Source of the DNA: a bacterium
GTDB taxonomy: Bacteria; Acidobacteriota; Blastocatellia; HR10
Assembly: GCA_041640655.1 (NCBI GenBank)
Contig: JBEPZV010000045.1
Location: forward strand, 1-18,237
DNA length: 18,237 nucleotides
Direction of reading: 5' to 3'
Shown: positions 6,882 to 12,498 of the stretch, piece by piece
How the letters are laid out: each line of letters opens with the position of its first letter
How positions within the stretch are numbered: the first letter of the stretch is position 1
Position numbers and translations under genes: made by a program
Notes under the pieces: model-generated
The model's database searches: none
What the model saw: the letters and a program-made list of their open reading frames with translations, nothing else
What the model was told of the DNA's origin: nothing

Positions 6882-8633
6882 ATGCGCACCTGGAAACCGC
6901 CAATCACTCTGAACCTTCAGGCTGTGGCGGCGAGGATGAGTCATGACGCTTCCCTCACGGTCTCTCTCCGCCGCCGCAGAACGATGACTCTGCTGTTGCT
7001 GATCCTCCCCCTCCTTTTCACAGGGGCGGGAGTTCAGATACCTCCGGTCGCCTCTCCGGCGGCCCAGCGGATCCCCCCAATAGGCATCAAGGCGCAAACG
7101 CCCATCCCCTGCAGCCTCACGCCGAACAGTGGCCTGCCCGGCGACACATTCTCGGCGACGATCAGCGTGGGTCCCCACGCGCTACTCTCACAGCTGATGG
7201 CGACGATGACCCCGGCCGAGATGCAGGCCGCGACGAGCTTGAGTTTCTCCCCTATCGGCGTTCAAGCCTTCGTGATTCAGACGGCGTACACGCAAACTTC
7301 ACAGGTCGTCTACACGAGCATGCTGACGCTCCTGCCCACCGCTCCGTCCGGCCCGCGAGATCTGGTGATCACCCTCCAACCGCCGGGGCGAACGCCCGTT
7401 GGATTCGTCTGCCCGCGCGCGTTCGCGATCGAGACACCGGAGGAACGTATGCAGAGGGCGAACCAGAGATTCCGTGAGGAAATCGCCGGTGCCCTTCAAG
7501 CCATGGGGCGACAGATGGGCGTGCCCGTGCGGACGGATGACTTCGTGGCCAGTGCCGACGACGATCCGCCGCTCATTGTCGGTGCCCTCATCGCCGGGGC
7601 CGAAGACCTTCCCATCGAAGAACTGGCGCGGGGCGCGGACCTGCTCTTTGTCTTTCTCCGGGTGCCCCAGGGGTCGGGGCTGCCGTCGGGATTCTACGTC
7701 ATCCGCGTCTCCCAAGATTCGGGCCGATGGCGAGCCCAATTCCGGGACGCGCAGGGGCGAATCGCGTTGGAGACGCCGATGGACGTGGAAATCAAGGAGA
7801 CGACTGACGAGCAAGCGGACTTGTTCAGAATCAAGGTCACCACCCCAAGAGGCCGTGTCATCATCAAGGACATCAGAAAGGGGCTCCGTATGGCGGGGCC
7901 GGGAAGGACGGTAGATGCTCAGATCGAACTGCCCCTCGGCACCGGCGGACCGGATGGAACGCCCTTGCCTCCGGCCGGGCAGGCCATCCTCCGCGCTACC
8001 GATACCTTGCTGAGAGCGGCCCGCGACAGTATCGCCGCCGGAGCCAAACTCACCAAAGCCGATGCCGCTCGCGCCGTCGGAGCAGCAAGTACGGGGGAAG
8101 CGTTCATCGTCTGGACCTACATCAACGGTATGGAACGGGCCAGCATTGAGGAGTTGGCCCGGGGCCGACCCGCGATGTTAGTCATCGCAGGGGACCAGCG
8201 CTGGGGAGATAAGCTCTGGCTCTCTCGAATCGGACGAGACGCCGCCGGCCAGTGGTTCGCCACCAATCAATTCCTGACGGGGGAGTCCATTACCGTGCCG
8301 GCTGACGTTTCGCCCTCTGGAGTATCAACGATGGCGCCTCTTCTGCTGACGAATATCGAACCGGATGACATTTCGCCCACGTTGGTCACTCCGGCCGGGA
8401 TCGTCATCAAGGAGAAAAGCTTTTGTACAAGATGCAACTGTTGCAATAGATGCTGCAATCCTGCCGGGGCAGCGGGCTTCTCCTGCAGGGAGACCGGGTC
8501 CCCGGCTGACATGGTCGCCGGGGCGAGCATTCGCGAGGACGCCGTCCATCGCCTCGGCATCGCGCCGAGAGGCCAGAGCACGGTCCGGCTGGTGGCATGC
8601 GAAATCAGAGGCGCGAGGCGAATGTATCGCTGA
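6882..8633 (+). CDS. Secreted hypothetical protein: Ig/IPT-like domain, two copies of an unrecognised domain, Cys-rich segment near the C-terminus (start may be later, at MTLLLL)
   Basis: RBS AAGGAG; RRRR plus hydrophobic LLLLILPLLFTGAG; IPT-like CSLTPNSGLPG..GPRDLVIT..CPRAFAI; IEELARG twice; FCTRCNCCNRCCNP. Confidence 0.75.
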   Translation: MRTWKPPITLNLQAVAARMSHDASLTVSLRRRRTMTLLLLILPLLFTGAGVQIPPVASPAAQRIPPIGIKAQTPIPCSLTPNSGLPGDTFSATISVGPHALLSQLMATMTPAEMQAATSLSFSPIGVQAFVIQTAYTQTSQVVYTSMLTLLPTAPSGPRDLVITLQPPGRTPVGFVCPRAFAIETPEERMQRANQRFREEIAGALQAMGRQMGVPVRTDDFVASADDDPPLIVGALIAGAEDLPIEELARGADLLFVFLRVPQGSGLPSGFYVIRVSQDSGRWRAQFRDAQGRIALETPMDVEIKETTDEQADLFRIKVTTPRGRVIIKDIRKGLRMAGPGRTVDAQIELPLGTGGPDGTPLPPAGQAILRATDTLLRAARDSIAAGAKLTKADAARAVGAASTGEAFIVWTYINGMERASIEELARGRPAMLVIAGDQRWGDKLWLSRIGRDAAGQWFATNQFLTGESITVPADVSPSGVSTMAPLLLTNIEPDDISPTLVTPAGIVIKEKSFCTRCNCCNRCCNPAGAAGFSCRETGSPADMVAGASIREDAVHRLGIAPRGQSTVRLVACEIRGARRMYR

Positions 8634-8708
8634 TGCGAAGAGTCGGCGTCAGCGCTCTTCCCCTCTCGCGCACGAGGTGAGAAAATATGGGGCCGAAAGG
8701 AGGAAGCG

Positions 8709-9509
8709 ATGGACAGCATGTGGTCGAAAAGAATCACTTCTGCGCTCATGGTCGCCTGGCTCTTCCCCTTACTCCAGACCGGCTCGCCGCAGCAAGCTCC
8801 GCCGCCCTCGAATCCGGAGCTTCACGCTCTGCGGAGAGAGATCGAGGCGCTCAAGGAAGGGCAGGCGCGGATCGAGAAGCAGCTTCAGGAGATCCGAGAT
8901 TTGTTGAGCACGATTCTGGCTCCGCGCCCGACCGAGCCGCGCGAGATCACGCTCACTGTAGATGGTGCGCCCGCGAAGGGGGAGAAGACCGCTCGCGTAA
9001 TCCTCATCGAATTCTCCGATTACCAATGACCGTTCTGCGCGCGGCACGTCCGGGAGACGTTGCCTCAAATCGAACGCGAGTATATTCAGACGGGGAAGGT
9101 CCGGTACGTCGTGCGCGATTTCCCCTTGCCCACGCACCGGCACGCGTTCAAGGCGGCTGAAGCCGCTCACTGCGCGGCCGAACAAGGGCGCTTCTGGGAG
9201 ATGCACGCTCGACTCTTCGAACATCAGAATGCTCTGGATGTGGAGGCCCTCCCGCAGCATGCGCAAGCTCTCGGTCTCGATCTCCCCCGGTTCCAACAGT
9301 GCTTGCAACAAGGGCGATATGCCGAGGCCATTCGCCGCGATCTGGAGGAGGGGCGGCGGGCGGGCGTTCGGGGAACGCCGACGTTCTTCCTCGGCGTCCT
9401 CGAGCCGGATGGCGCGCGAGTGAAGGTCCAGCGGGTGATCGTGGGCGCGCAGCCCTATGCCGCTTTCCGGGAAGCCCTCGAAGCCTTGCTCGCCGCGCAA
9501 AAGCCATAG
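8709..9509 (+). CDS. dsbA: DsbA-family thiol-disulfide oxidoreductase, predicted selenoprotein (266 aa, Sec at codon 107, UGA 9027-9029)
   Basis: ORFs 8709..9029 and 9060..9509 are in one frame; reading through TGA gives EFSDYQ-U-PFCARHVRETLPQIEREYIQTGKVRYVVRDFPL, with UGA at the first Cys of CxxC; GVRGTPTF cis-Pro loop; RBS AAGGAGG; hairpin 9043-9064. Confidence 0.92.
9030..9064 (+). promoter_or_regulatory. Bacterial SECIS-like element
   Basis: Stem GGCACGTC (9043-9050) / GACG-T-TGCC (9056-9064) with one bulged U; loop CGGGA with G at position 2; 21 nt between the UGA and the loop. Confidence 0.75.
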
Positions 9510-9614: not shown

Positions 9615-9643
9615 TTGACATCGCCCGCAGGAGGCGGCATACT
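9615..9643 (+). promoter_or_regulatory. Sigma70-type promoter for the 9676 and 10708 genes
   Basis: TTGACA (9615-9620), 17-nt spacer, CATACT (9638-9643); RBS TAGGAGGTG 9662-9670. Confidence 0.7.
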
Positions 9644-9675: not shown

Positions 9676-10647
9676 ATGCAACGAGCATTTGCATTCTGCT
9701 CTCTCGCCTTGTGCCTCCTACTTAGCCTTCCGAGCCGCCTCATGGCTGCTCAAGCTCCCGGAACGTCGCAGGGCTTCTCGGTGACGATCATGAATATTTG
9801 CGGAACTCCTCTGGCTCCAGAGACCATTGAGATTTCGAGCGTGACGCTCACGCTCAATGGGCTTCCCATCGCGACGCAAGCCGGCCCGCGTCCGCTGAAG
9901 ACCGGAGAGACGACGACATTCCAATTCCCCGTCTCGCAATTCCCAATCCTCGCAACCACCACGCCCAACGACGTGACGATCACATGGCGACGTGGTGCTC
10001 AACAACTTACCACACTGTTCTTCCCCATGCCGATTGGAGAACCCCGGGATCAGTCATGCTTGCGCGTGCTGCTGACAAGCGGCCTGGAAGGAGAGGCGGG
10101 GACGATCTTCAACCAAACGCGCAGCCTGATCTCGGGCACGGCCAGTCGGCTCGGCGTCTCCGTGGATCCGGCTCAAGCGAAGCTCTTCCAGATCGGCAAC
10201 GTGCCGATGGCCATGGCTCCGGCAACGGCGGCCGGACCGACGCTCGGCGTCATGGAGCTGGGAAGCGCGATGACCATTGGGAGCGTCTTGCTTTCTCCCG
10301 GAAGCTACAAAATCAACGTGGACTTCACCACCCGCGAGATCAGCTTCATTGACGCCTCGGGGATCACGCGCGCTAAAAGGGATGCTCAGATCGAGCCTGT
10401 GGCAGGACCGGCGGCCGTGATGTCAGGACCGCTCACTCTGACGGCCACTTCGACGTGCCAGGCGACGACATCCTCGGAGGAGCCTGTGGAACCCATGGCC
10501 TTCGCCGGATGCGTGGGACCGACGATCAGCTTCAGCCTCACGTTCATCCCCGCTCCTCCGTTCGTTCTCCTTCTGACGTGCATCGGCTTCTTGTGCCATC
10601 CTTTTCACCCGCTTCCGCCCTATGTCTCAATCGGCTTCTGCTTCTGA
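9676..10647 (+). CDS. Secreted hypothetical protein: beta-rich domain, domain resembling the 6882 repeat, hydrophobic Cys/Pro-rich C-terminal peptide
   Basis: Strong RBS and promoter; signal peptide MQRAFAFCSLALCLLLSLPSRLMA; tail FAGCVGPTISFSLTFIPAPPFVLLLTCIGFLCHPFHPLPPYVSIGFCF. Confidence 0.85.
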   Translation: MQRAFAFCSLALCLLLSLPSRLMAAQAPGTSQGFSVTIMNICGTPLAPETIEISSVTLTLNGLPIATQAGPRPLKTGETTTFQFPVSQFPILATTTPNDVTITWRRGAQQLTTLFFPMPIGEPRDQSCLRVLLTSGLEGEAGTIFNQTRSLISGTASRLGVSVDPAQAKLFQIGNVPMAMAPATAAGPTLGVMELGSAMTIGSVLLSPGSYKINVDFTTREISFIDASGITRAKRDAQIEPVAGPAAVMSGPLTLTATSTCQATTSSEEPVEPMAFAGCVGPTISFSLTFIPAPPFVLLLTCIGFLCHPFHPLPPYVSIGFCF

Positions 10648-10707: not shown

Positions 10708-12498
10708 ATGGAGAACCGAATGCTCTGCGCTCGACACGTCCTTCTCACGGGGCTCGCGATCGCGGGCGCCCTCTCTCTCCTGATGTGGCCCGGATCGCCT
10801 CCCCAGCCGGAGGCGAGATCCCACACAGTCTTCGCCGCATCGCAGGACGTCTGTGGGGAGTTCTCCCAATTCATCCAGTTCGTCCTCCAACCGACGGGCG
10901 CCGGATGCTGCCCAAGCTGCTGTTGGGACCTGAAGGTGCGGAACACACTCCCAGGTGCTGACTGCCTCAAGCCCACGCTCACGCTCAAGGCGAGCCCTGC
11001 GTTCATCGAATTCGTTCAGGTGAATCTGGCTCCCAATTGGACGCTCTCTCCGCAGCCCCCCACCACTGGGCCGCTCACCTTAACCTACTCAGGCTCCCAA
11101 ATCCCCACGGGGGAGACGACGATCGGACGATTCTGTCTGAACTTTCAGAACCAACCAAATGGCAGTCTCACGATTCAGTGGACGGTGGGGTATGGGCCTA
11201 GTGCGTGTGGCCCTTATGAAGCGACCTGCTCCACCACGTTGAATCTCACCTGCCCGGCCGGCTGCCTGTTGTGTGGGAGAAAGTGCCGAGACCTGAACGG
11301 AAACGGCGAGTGTGATCCCAGTGAGCCTCTGCTTGCCAATTGGCCGATCACCCTGACCGATGCTAGTGGCAACTCGTTGACGATCAAAACGGATCAATGG
11401 GGACGATTCTGTTTCTTCAATCTGGCTCCGGGGCTCTACACGATCTCGGAAGCTGTCCCATCCGGTTGGGTGGCCGGACCGGTATCGTGCACCAAGTTCA
11501 TCCCTGTCCAGGTCCCAGGATATCCGAAGACGGTGGATTGCGGCCAGCAAGCCGGAAGTTGCCAATTCACGTGCGAATACCGCGAGGACATCCGGCGGTA
11601 CGACTGCATCATGTGCCGGTTCCCGAACCTGCGCGCCGAGGATGTGGCGGAGAGAAAGGAGTGCGACGATCGCCCGGAGATCCTCAACACCGGCTGGGAT
11701 GAGCGCATCCAGTCCACGATCTCGATCAGTGATCCGGATGACGAATGGGTGGTCATTGACGACCCAGATCCGAGCACTTCGGAGCCACGCCCGGCCACGG
11801 TGATCGCCAATCCGATGACGAAGAAGGAGCCGCGCTCGGAATGGATCTCCGCCGATCAGCTTGGTCGCGTTCGCCGAACGGGCCAATACGTGTTCCAGCG
11901 CTGCTTCTGTCTGGACCCGGATGATCTGGCGAAGGCGAGCATGAAGCTCACGCTCTGGGCGGCCAACGAAGCCATCGTGTTTCTGAACGGGAACCAGATC
12001 GGCACAACGCCCCCGCGCTCCTATCAGCAGCCGAATCCCACGGCGATCACGGTGTCGAGCGGATCTCTCCGCGCGGGTCTCAATTGCCTTCAGGTCGTCG
12101 TCACCGGCGGACCGACGGGCTTTCCGCTCACCCCGCAAGCCGGGTTCGACCTGGTCGGGGAGGTCACCGCCGGAAGTGACCTCTGTTGCGAGGGCGGGGC
12201 CATCTGCGGCGTGAAGTTCCATGACGCCAATGGCAATGGAGTGATGGACACCGGAGAACAACTGCTCCCCGGGTGGCCGATCGTGTTGCGCGATGACCAG
12301 GGGACGGTCGTGAGGATAGCGGTCACGGATCGAAATGGCGCCTACTGCTTCGACCGCCTGCCGCCCGGGCAGTACGTGGTCTCCGAAATCCTCCAGCCGA
12401 ATTGGCGACAGACGTACCCGCCGCCACCCGGGACACATCAGGTGAACCTGGACCCGAAGCAGTCCGTCCTCCATCGCGATTTCGGAAACCGACAGTGA
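10708..12498 (+). CDS. Secreted Cys-rich protein with two SdrD B-like (Cna-B type) domains flanking a galactose-binding-like jelly roll
   Basis: CGRKCRDLNGNGECDPSEPLLANWPITL..NLAPGLYTISE and CGVKFHDANGNGVMDTGEQLLPGWPIVL..LPPGQYVVSE..DFGN; jelly-roll motifs WISAD, AIVFLNGNQIG, LRAGLNCLQVVV; about 30 Cys. Confidence 0.88.
   Translation: MENRMLCARHVLLTGLAIAGALSLLMWPGSPPQPEARSHTVFAASQDVCGEFSQFIQFVLQPTGAGCCPSCCWDLKVRNTLPGADCLKPTLTLKASPAFIEFVQVNLAPNWTLSPQPPTTGPLTLTYSGSQIPTGETTIGRFCLNFQNQPNGSLTIQWTVGYGPSACGPYEATCSTTLNLTCPAGCLLCGRKCRDLNGNGECDPSEPLLANWPITLTDASGNSLTIKTDQWGRFCFFNLAPGLYTISEAVPSGWVAGPVSCTKFIPVQVPGYPKTVDCGQQAGSCQFTCEYREDIRRYDCIMCRFPNLRAEDVAERKECDDRPEILNTGWDERIQSTISISDPDDEWVVIDDPDPSTSEPRPATVIANPMTKKEPRSEWISADQLGRVRRTGQYVFQRCFCLDPDDLAKASMKLTLWAANEAIVFLNGNQIGTTPPRSYQQPNPTAITVSSGSLRAGLNCLQVVVTGGPTGFPLTPQAGFDLVGEVTAGSDLCCEGGAICGVKFHDANGNGVMDTGEQLLPGWPIVLRDDQGTVVRIAVTDRNGAYCFDRLPPGQYVVSEILQPNWRQTYPPPPGTHQVNLDPKQSVLHRDFGNRQ

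Follow-up and report, generated by a model that had tools for sequence, protein, structure and literature searches.

A predicted selenocysteine-containing DsbA/DsbG-like oxidoreductase with a heptad-repeat helix in Acidobacteriota

Introduction

Selenoproteins of the DsbA-like and DsbG-like type, marked by a UxxC active site, have been catalogued in surveys since 2005 (PMC1088965, PMC1794560, PMC2398784, PMC13188914), and their functions are largely uncharacterised (PMC13188914); the initial annotation of the DNA described here had said as much of the DsbA-like ones. The "DsbG-like" family is listed as COG1651 (PMC1088965, PMC2398784), and is equated in a 2026 review with NF041057, the Rcas_1661 family of thioredoxin-like (seleno)lipoproteins (PMC13188914). 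The selenoprotein called "DsbA-like protein form 1" corresponds to PF01323 and COG2761 (PMC1088965), the catalogued "thiol:disulfide interchange protein" to PF13098. Bacterial SECIS elements are modelled as hairpins located 16–37 nt from the UGA, with a stem of at least 4 bp, a loop of 3–9 nt with G in the first two loop positions, and an MFE of -7.5 or lower (PMC13188914). Sec-to-Cys reversions have been found mostly in FdhA and SelD, remnant SECIS elements having already been described (PMC1794560), and are called rare (PMC13188914).

DsbA-like domains preceded by a long helix are known from the trimeric isomerases ScsC, of Proteus and Caulobacter, and alpha-DsbA2, of Wolbachia (PMC6450060, PMC5524982, PMC8900818). 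In the comparison reported in PMC6450060, nothing distinguishes an isomerase better than an N-terminal region of at least 50 residues, and a G-T-cisP loop is present in all five isomerases compared. The window analysed here is a stretch of 18,237 nucleotides (contig JBEPZV010000045.1) from a bacterium of the phylum Acidobacteriota. Its gene at 8709–9509 combines features of both groups. No paper on the subfamily or on "Rcas_1661" was found in the open-access literature, and supplements of selenoproteome surveys may list these genes. In the available text of PMC12013277 Acidobacteriota are mentioned only in a test table.

Results

One gene with an in-frame TGA

The gene spans positions 8709..9509 of the plus strand, measures 266 codons plus a TAG stop, and encodes a predicted Sec-containing DsbA/DsbG-like thiol-disulfide oxidoreductase. 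The ATG at 8709, the TGA at 9027–9029 and the TAG at 9507–9509 share one frame. A Shine-Dalgarno sequence, AGGAGG (8698..8703, plus strand), is found 5 nt ahead of the ATG, and the same hexamer precedes the start codon in the related loci L066, L067 and L068. Standard gene calling yields two ORFs, of 106 aa (8709–9029) and 149 aa (9060–9509). When the TGA is read through, a product of 266 residues featuring FSDYQ-U-PFC is obtained, with no other in-frame stop. In a public protein collection the two fragments figure as separate proteins (clusters 7 and 8), which shows that the gene is indeed split by gene callers, as the initial annotation had anticipated. Its central claim, that the two ORF calls are one gene with a frame intact from the UGA down to the TAG, was confirmed by the Pfam domains Thioredoxin_4 (E 2.8e-32, residues 87–229) and DSBA (E 1.1e-18), which both span the TGA.

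The in-frame TGA (9027..9029, plus strand) corresponds to predicted selenocysteine 107, the nucleophile of the UPFC motif. It occupies the first Cys of the CxxC motif, again as first proposed. The same column is Cys in all 114 aligned database homologues, a set obtained from the 120 matches listed after exclusion of the window fragment and of five proteins of greater length (115 sequences when the window protein is included).

The TGA codon 9027–9029 is no assembly error. It is bridged unchanged by contigs from three of four sequencing runs (X4 record 17, X12 record 1, X13 record 3), and two of the three bridging contigs differ from the window at 21 and 8 other positions, not at the TGA. Contigs of run X3 agree with the TGA and stop 24 letters past the codon, and a minor X4 contig with 48 differences was unreadable at the TGA. 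The check is thus one of contigs, not of raw reads, and at this level the concern that reads might show TGC or TGT is not borne out, since independent assemblies carry TGA. Most runs containing the stretch are labelled hot-spring metagenomes. Contigs of the RNA run X13 cover the gene; contigs cannot show transcription. A promoter and terminator scan revealed no promoter-like site directly upstream of the gene and no terminator downstream.

TGA and Cys codons in homologues

The 8 genomes of the family hold 15 homologues, with TGA as active-site codon in 5 and TGT or TGC in 10. In a sample of 401 genomes of the phylum, 33 genomes gave 37 matches at E <=1e-45, and 16 of these matches, from 15 genomes, hold one TGA. 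The TGA was at the active site in each of the 15 matches that were read, G277:C30 lying outside the reading. A class sample of 401 genomes gave 16 matches outside the family, all devoid of internal stops. A search for related loci gave 160 loci, of which 150 were read at a total of 157 sites, 3 of them with TGA; since the Cys motif was part of one search pattern, this ratio was not taken as a measure of how frequent Sec is. Orthologues in the family genomes and in the phylum sample pair TGA with TGC or TGT at this codon, which settles the initial doubt whether UGA occurs here in any of them.

The SECIS hairpin

A SECIS hairpin is predicted within the coding sequence (9043..9064, plus strand) from folding and from conservation in TGA genes. 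In the fold, a 4-bp core stem is formed by positions 9047–9050 paired with 9056–9059, a CGGGA loop of 5 nt (9051–9055) is set 21 nt past the UGA, and a U is bulged on the 3' side (9060/9061), all on the plus strand. The element satisfies the published model as encoded in our own script (loop CGGGA, spacing 21, upper stem of 4 bp, -14.9 kcal/mol). The same script passes 17 of 22 active-site TGA genes, the remaining 5 failing, but it also accepts ordinary TGA stops from the genome (30 of 120). The bulged-U hairpin with a G-containing loop, on which the initial annotation relied, is therefore present, but by itself proves little, and the generic model was set aside as weak evidence. Stability was rejected as evidence as well, z-scores against shuffled sequences ranging from +0.24 to +1.69 in all four folds.

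Conservation is more telling. The 13-nt core, made by the 4-bp stem and the loop, is found in 20 of 22 TGA genes and in 1 of 175 Cys genes; the count is based on 197 distinct active-site contexts (206 rows before removal of duplicates), the motif filter having missed 10 genome loci and 10 collection loci. The two TGA genes lacking the core belong to a more distant subfamily with a different hairpin. When the peptide is fixed as [HY]VRxT, the exact SECIS codon set is found in 19 of 19 TGA genes and in 1 of 14 Cys genes, where a rough estimate from the codon usage of the genome predicts about 0.04. The set is kept in 13 of 13 TGA genes outside the family, and also in G363, which the filter missed. 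Third-codon positions 18, 21, 27 and 30 past the UGA, which form the pairs 18–30 and 21–27, are invariant in 20 of 20 genes. Position 24 is G or U only, which fits the published loop pattern (PMC13188914). The core being invariant, covariation cannot confirm the pairing. In these SECIS counts relatives are not independent, and two variable positions of the motif were fixed after viewing the data. What exceeds chance, and is strong evidence for the element, is thus not stability but the retention of the hairpin by TGA genes and its loss from Cys genes.

A second type of hairpin marks the distant DsbA-like subfamily represented by L239 (G181) and L252 (G132), which also has an active-site TGA. 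Its loop is a 3-nt GUC, set 19 nt past the UGA. In G181 both kinds of TGA gene and hairpin reside within one 3.7-kb locus adjoining an AhpC/TSA gene.

Selenocysteine machinery

All components of Sec insertion, for which the initial annotation proposed to search, were identified in the genome (3.13 Mb searched, 89.8% complete). Profile matches to selA (586 bits), selB (372 bits) and selD (365 bits) are over curated cut-offs; a tRNA-Sec gene (selC) scores 75 bits against a gathering score of 47, and is called by ARAGORN too. The selD gene of the same genome has its own in-frame TGA. Matches to selB over the cut-off were found in 8 of 8 genomes of the family and in all 14 other TGA-bearing genomes of the phylum sample. 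Genomes lacking selB (6 of 45) have only stop-free matches; yet this co-occurrence is a weak test, because 39 of the 45 genomes carry selB anyway.

A census of selenoproteins over the whole genome was abandoned, as two screens by motif and codon usage gave 908 and 472 candidates, mainly noise. Other TGA codons that lie in frame within redox or metal-motif contexts were seen in this genome (G000) at C1:57025, C1:58998, C1:148452, C1:218158(-), C1:53466(-), C5:34043(-) and C3:30138(-), and 5 of these 7 sites pass the scripted SECIS model. With seven additional sites of this type, the G000 genome looks selenoprotein-rich.

Features of the protein

Residues 1 to about 29 (8709..8795, plus strand) make a probable cleaved signal peptide, whose end is inferred. 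It has a basic start and a hydrophobic core, as judged by eye and by a hydropathy scan, and its best 15-residue mean (1.65) lies at the low end of the range of coiled-coil relatives (1.5–3.05). No Cys is found ahead of residue 107, and a lipobox is thus absent. The signal peptide would very probably export the protein to the periplasm in soluble form.

In an AlphaFold2 model, computed with Cys at the Sec position (mean pLDDT 87.9), a low-confidence N-terminal segment is followed by a helix (residues 36–70) and by a thioredoxin fold with a helical insert (residues 81–264). The 35-residue helix (8814..8918, plus strand) is, from the model and its heptad pattern, a probable oligomerisation stalk. 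Hydrophobic residues occupy 7 of 8 a/d positions and polar residues 17 of the 20 others; L41, Q52, L59, L65 and L66 are at least 90% conserved in 115 homologues, and the pattern recurs in coiled-coil TGA genes of other families. About 60 mature residues, heptad helix included, precede the thioredoxin fold.

The resolving Cys110 (9036..9038, plus strand) is invariant in the 115 sequences, as is a second Cys pair in the helical insert (9171..9302, plus strand), made by Cys155 (9171–9173) and Cys198 (9300–9302). The latter pair, probably a structural disulfide, is retained in 21 of 22 TGA genes. The loop G-T-P (Gly222, Thr223, Pro224; 9372..9380, plus strand) has T223 and P224 invariant and G222 at least 90% conserved; the cis geometry of Pro224 is inferred from the thioredoxin fold. 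Several TGA genes feature S-T-P or A-T-P in place of G-T-P.

Comparison with known families

The best NCBIfam match is NF041057 (E 5e-40). Like members of this family, the window protein has its UxxC where the first Cys of a Thioredoxin_4/DSBA-type domain would be, begins with a probable export signal and has homologues that use Cys. It differs in scoring 137.6 bits (129.4 in a six-frame genome search) against a cut-off of 190, in having no lipobox Cys, in carrying the 35-residue heptad helix ahead of the catalytic domain, and in its spread across Acidobacteriota. The score under the cut-off and the missing lipobox indicate that it resembles the NF041057 family and is not a member. Pfam scores are 112.6 bits for PF13462, the best, 68.2 for PF01323 and 34.7 for PF13098. 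UxxC and scores over the cut-off for the latter two models are shared with "DsbA-like form 1" and the "thiol:disulfide interchange protein", from which the window protein may be set apart by its higher score for PF13462. As for DsbA-like oxidoreductases in general, PF13462 and PF01323 score over the cut-off, and a CxxC-type motif, a T-P loop and a helical insert are present. The initial annotation as a DsbA-like oxidoreductase thus holds for the DsbA/DsbG-type domain, not for the catalogue entry, the nearest one being "DsbG-like" (NF041057) rather than "DsbA-like form 1". Classical DsbG (NF008657) is distant, at 19.2 bits against a cut-off of 124, and the DsbC_N dimerisation domain of DsbC was found neither in the protein nor in the genome.

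Similarity to ScsC and alpha-DsbA2 lies in the placement of a DsbA-like domain after at least 50 residues with a long helix, in the G-T-P loop, and in matches to PDB sequences (4xvw, 7rgv, 6eez; E 1e-9 to 3e-8). These proteins are Cys enzymes with PY, GY or GH in the active site, whereas the window protein has a predicted Sec and PF, and has no scsB or dsbD neighbour. The closest solved sequences are 4pwp (E 2e-20) and BdbD 3eu3 (E 2e-11), both with Cys, the match being limited to residues 83–238; 4pwp shares the CPFC motif and the G-T-P loop. We take 4pwp to be MdbA of Corynebacterium, and both proteins to be of the monoderm type, presumably membrane-anchored oxidases without a heptad stalk.

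Paralogues and Sec/Cys switching

The family also includes two clades of membrane-anchored paralogues which lack the heptad helix. One is all Cys and includes the copy on contig C4 of this genome. The other (L064 in G003:C4, L065 in G004:C32, L053 in G001:C26) has TGA in two members and TGT in one, with the same hairpin. Three paralogues coexist in G004, two of them with TGA.

When 183 catalytic domains were placed in a tree, a quick method required 8 changes of the Sec label. The clade of the window's orthologues has full support, and in it 5 Sec rows are mixed with 10 Cys rows. Topology tests were run on 19 of 32 rows, paralogue and distant rows being left out; the Cys state of P0002–P0006, P0122 and P0137 was taken from protein records. 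A single gain of Sec was rejected (trees keeping Sec rows together, p-AU 3e-12), and so was a single loss (trees keeping ingroup Cys rows together, p-AU 2e-5). Rejection of both constrained topologies implies at least three Sec/Cys changes.

An orthologue with TGC has the SECIS core fully intact (L068:2850-2885), the sole case among 175 Cys genes; its hairpin is likely a fossil SECIS. The hairpin is decayed in L067. The intact and the decayed hairpins, together with the hairpin being common to distant families, favour reversion from Sec to Cys as the direction of change.

Genomic neighbourhood

The gene sits among three exported-looking genes, and the order of the four genes is kept in 5 related loci (L057, L066, L067, L068, L069). 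G006, G007 and about 13 distant TGA loci examined do not share this neighbourhood, and none of these has a dsbD or vkor neighbour. No operon partner conserved across the phylum was found among the neighbour ORFs scanned (flanks of about 1.5 kb).

Downstream reside genes for an exported-looking cysteine-rich protein (9676–10647; 9 Cys, no Pfam family) and for an exported-looking protein with SdrD_B domains and 30 Cys (10708–12498). Copies of their products 70–75% identical flank the oxidoreductase in related loci. A promoter-like TTGACA-17-CATACT (9615–9643; 10/12, 0.3 expected by chance) ahead of the gene at 9676 suggests that the downstream genes may have their own promoter. The product of the upstream gene (6882–8633) belongs to no Pfam family and has a conserved cysteine-rich C-terminal tail (CxxCxCC-like). 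In L057, L066, L068 and L069 the upstream gene stops just past the tail; the window frame is about 55 codons longer, apparently because of a small indel removing the stop. Elsewhere in the same genome (L267, G000:C1:209605-211530) the stand-alone DsbD_TM (CcdA-like) gene adjoins a Laminin_G / SdrD_B / CARDB surface-protein gene, and a gene similar to the latter is found upstream of the oxidoreductase cluster in L069.

Discussion

The evidence collected on codon, hairpin and machinery bears on whether the TGA is decoded. SelB would almost certainly read the hairpin 21 nt past the UGA at 9027–9029, and Sec would be inserted to give one 266-residue UPFC protein. The opposite view, that the TGA genuinely ends translation or results from an error and the gene is a pseudogene whose job is done by the Cys paralogue on contig C4, is hardly credible. 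It can draw on the prevalence of TGA as main stop codon in the genome (989 of 1296 long ORFs), on the single base change that turns TGC or TGT into TGA, on the intact state of the C4 paralogue, and on a protein 91% identical that is recorded with Cys (BAL54143.1). Yet a TGA with an intact downstream frame of 158–171 codons and the same hairpin recurs in at least 7 families, independent assemblies carry it, and a genuine stop would not fix synonymous bases downstream.

For the function, we favour a disulfide isomerase or reductase of the ScsC / alpha-DsbA2 type, with two or three catalytic domains joined by the heptad helix, and give this reading a probability of about 0.5. The selenolate would attack wrong disulfides in exported proteins, Cys110 would resolve the mixed intermediate, the DsbD-type protein of the genome would re-reduce the selenenylsulfide, and the VKOR-DsbA fusion would handle oxidation. 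Likely clients would include the cysteine-rich exported proteins encoded by neighbouring genes. The partners invoked have counterparts in the genome, which holds a DsbD_TM + thioredoxin gene, a stand-alone DsbD_TM gene and a VKOR-DSBA fusion; matches to DsbB and DsbC_N were not found, which at 89.8% completeness is no proof of absence. The heptad helix, which had escaped the initial annotation, points towards an oligomeric isomerase over a classical DsbA oxidase: with helix 36–70 in the modelled structure, the N-terminal extension exceeds 50 residues and appears capable of serving as an oligomerisation domain. The proposed task does not require selenium, because close relatives use Cys. The G-T-P loop is also found in the best PDB match, 4pwp, whose chain is named DsbA and has the same CPFC motif.

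A dithiol oxidase like DsbA, BdbD or MdbA, with the helix as a spacer or tether, is less likely but the main alternative for what would still be a real selenoprotein. The enzyme would donate its selenenylsulfide to freshly exported proteins, and the VKOR fusion, which the genome has, would then re-oxidise the enzyme. The best solved relatives, 4pwp ("DsbA", E 2e-20, same CPFC) and BdbD 3eu3, agree with such a role, as do paralogues with 57–65% identical catalytic domains in which the helix is replaced by a membrane anchor and a low-complexity linker; some of these carry TGA, so that Sec does not depend on the helix. Oxidation, however, could already be covered by the VKOR fusion together with the membrane-anchored paralogue on C4, which has Cys, and a selenenylsulfide is as a rule more reducing than its disulfide counterpart, a poorer fit for an oxidase. 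The heptad helix, long and conserved, moreover fits the isomerase rule set out in PMC6450060. Specialised protection by a real selenoprotein, for example by repairing oxidised cysteines as DsbG does or by binding copper as ScsC does, is improbable. The nearest family bears the catalogue name DsbG-like and the PDB matches include ScsC proteins of copper sensitivity (4xvw, 7rgv, 4gxz, 6mhh), but no copper or scs gene adjoins the gene, either in the window or in those related loci that were scanned, and the true DsbG model NF008657 gives about 19 bits against its cut-off of 124.

The gene encodes a predicted soluble coiled-coil form that is spread over Acidobacteriota and whose close relatives have switched repeatedly between Sec and Cys; neither the mechanism nor the class of system is new. 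The same hidden codon is shared by 16 of 37 homologue matches in the Acidobacteriota sample, and a publicly split gene is corrected. The subfamily offers natural Sec and Cys versions (72–91% identity) and a short SECIS with an intact but unused natural copy, which make the question of why Sec is used in an exported thiol oxidoreductase easy to test. We put forward only tentatively that these genes form an uncatalogued, Acidobacteriota-wide group of exported, oligomeric coiled-coil Sec isomerases, with repeated Sec-to-Cys reversion within one Sec-competent genus. If true, they would be a bacterial counterpart of Sec-containing protein disulfide isomerases. The fossil SECIS, along with natural Sec and Cys counterparts that reach 91% identity, would contradict the published view that reversion seldom happens except in FdhA and SelD, and would provide a ready test of selenium's contribution to periplasmic folding.
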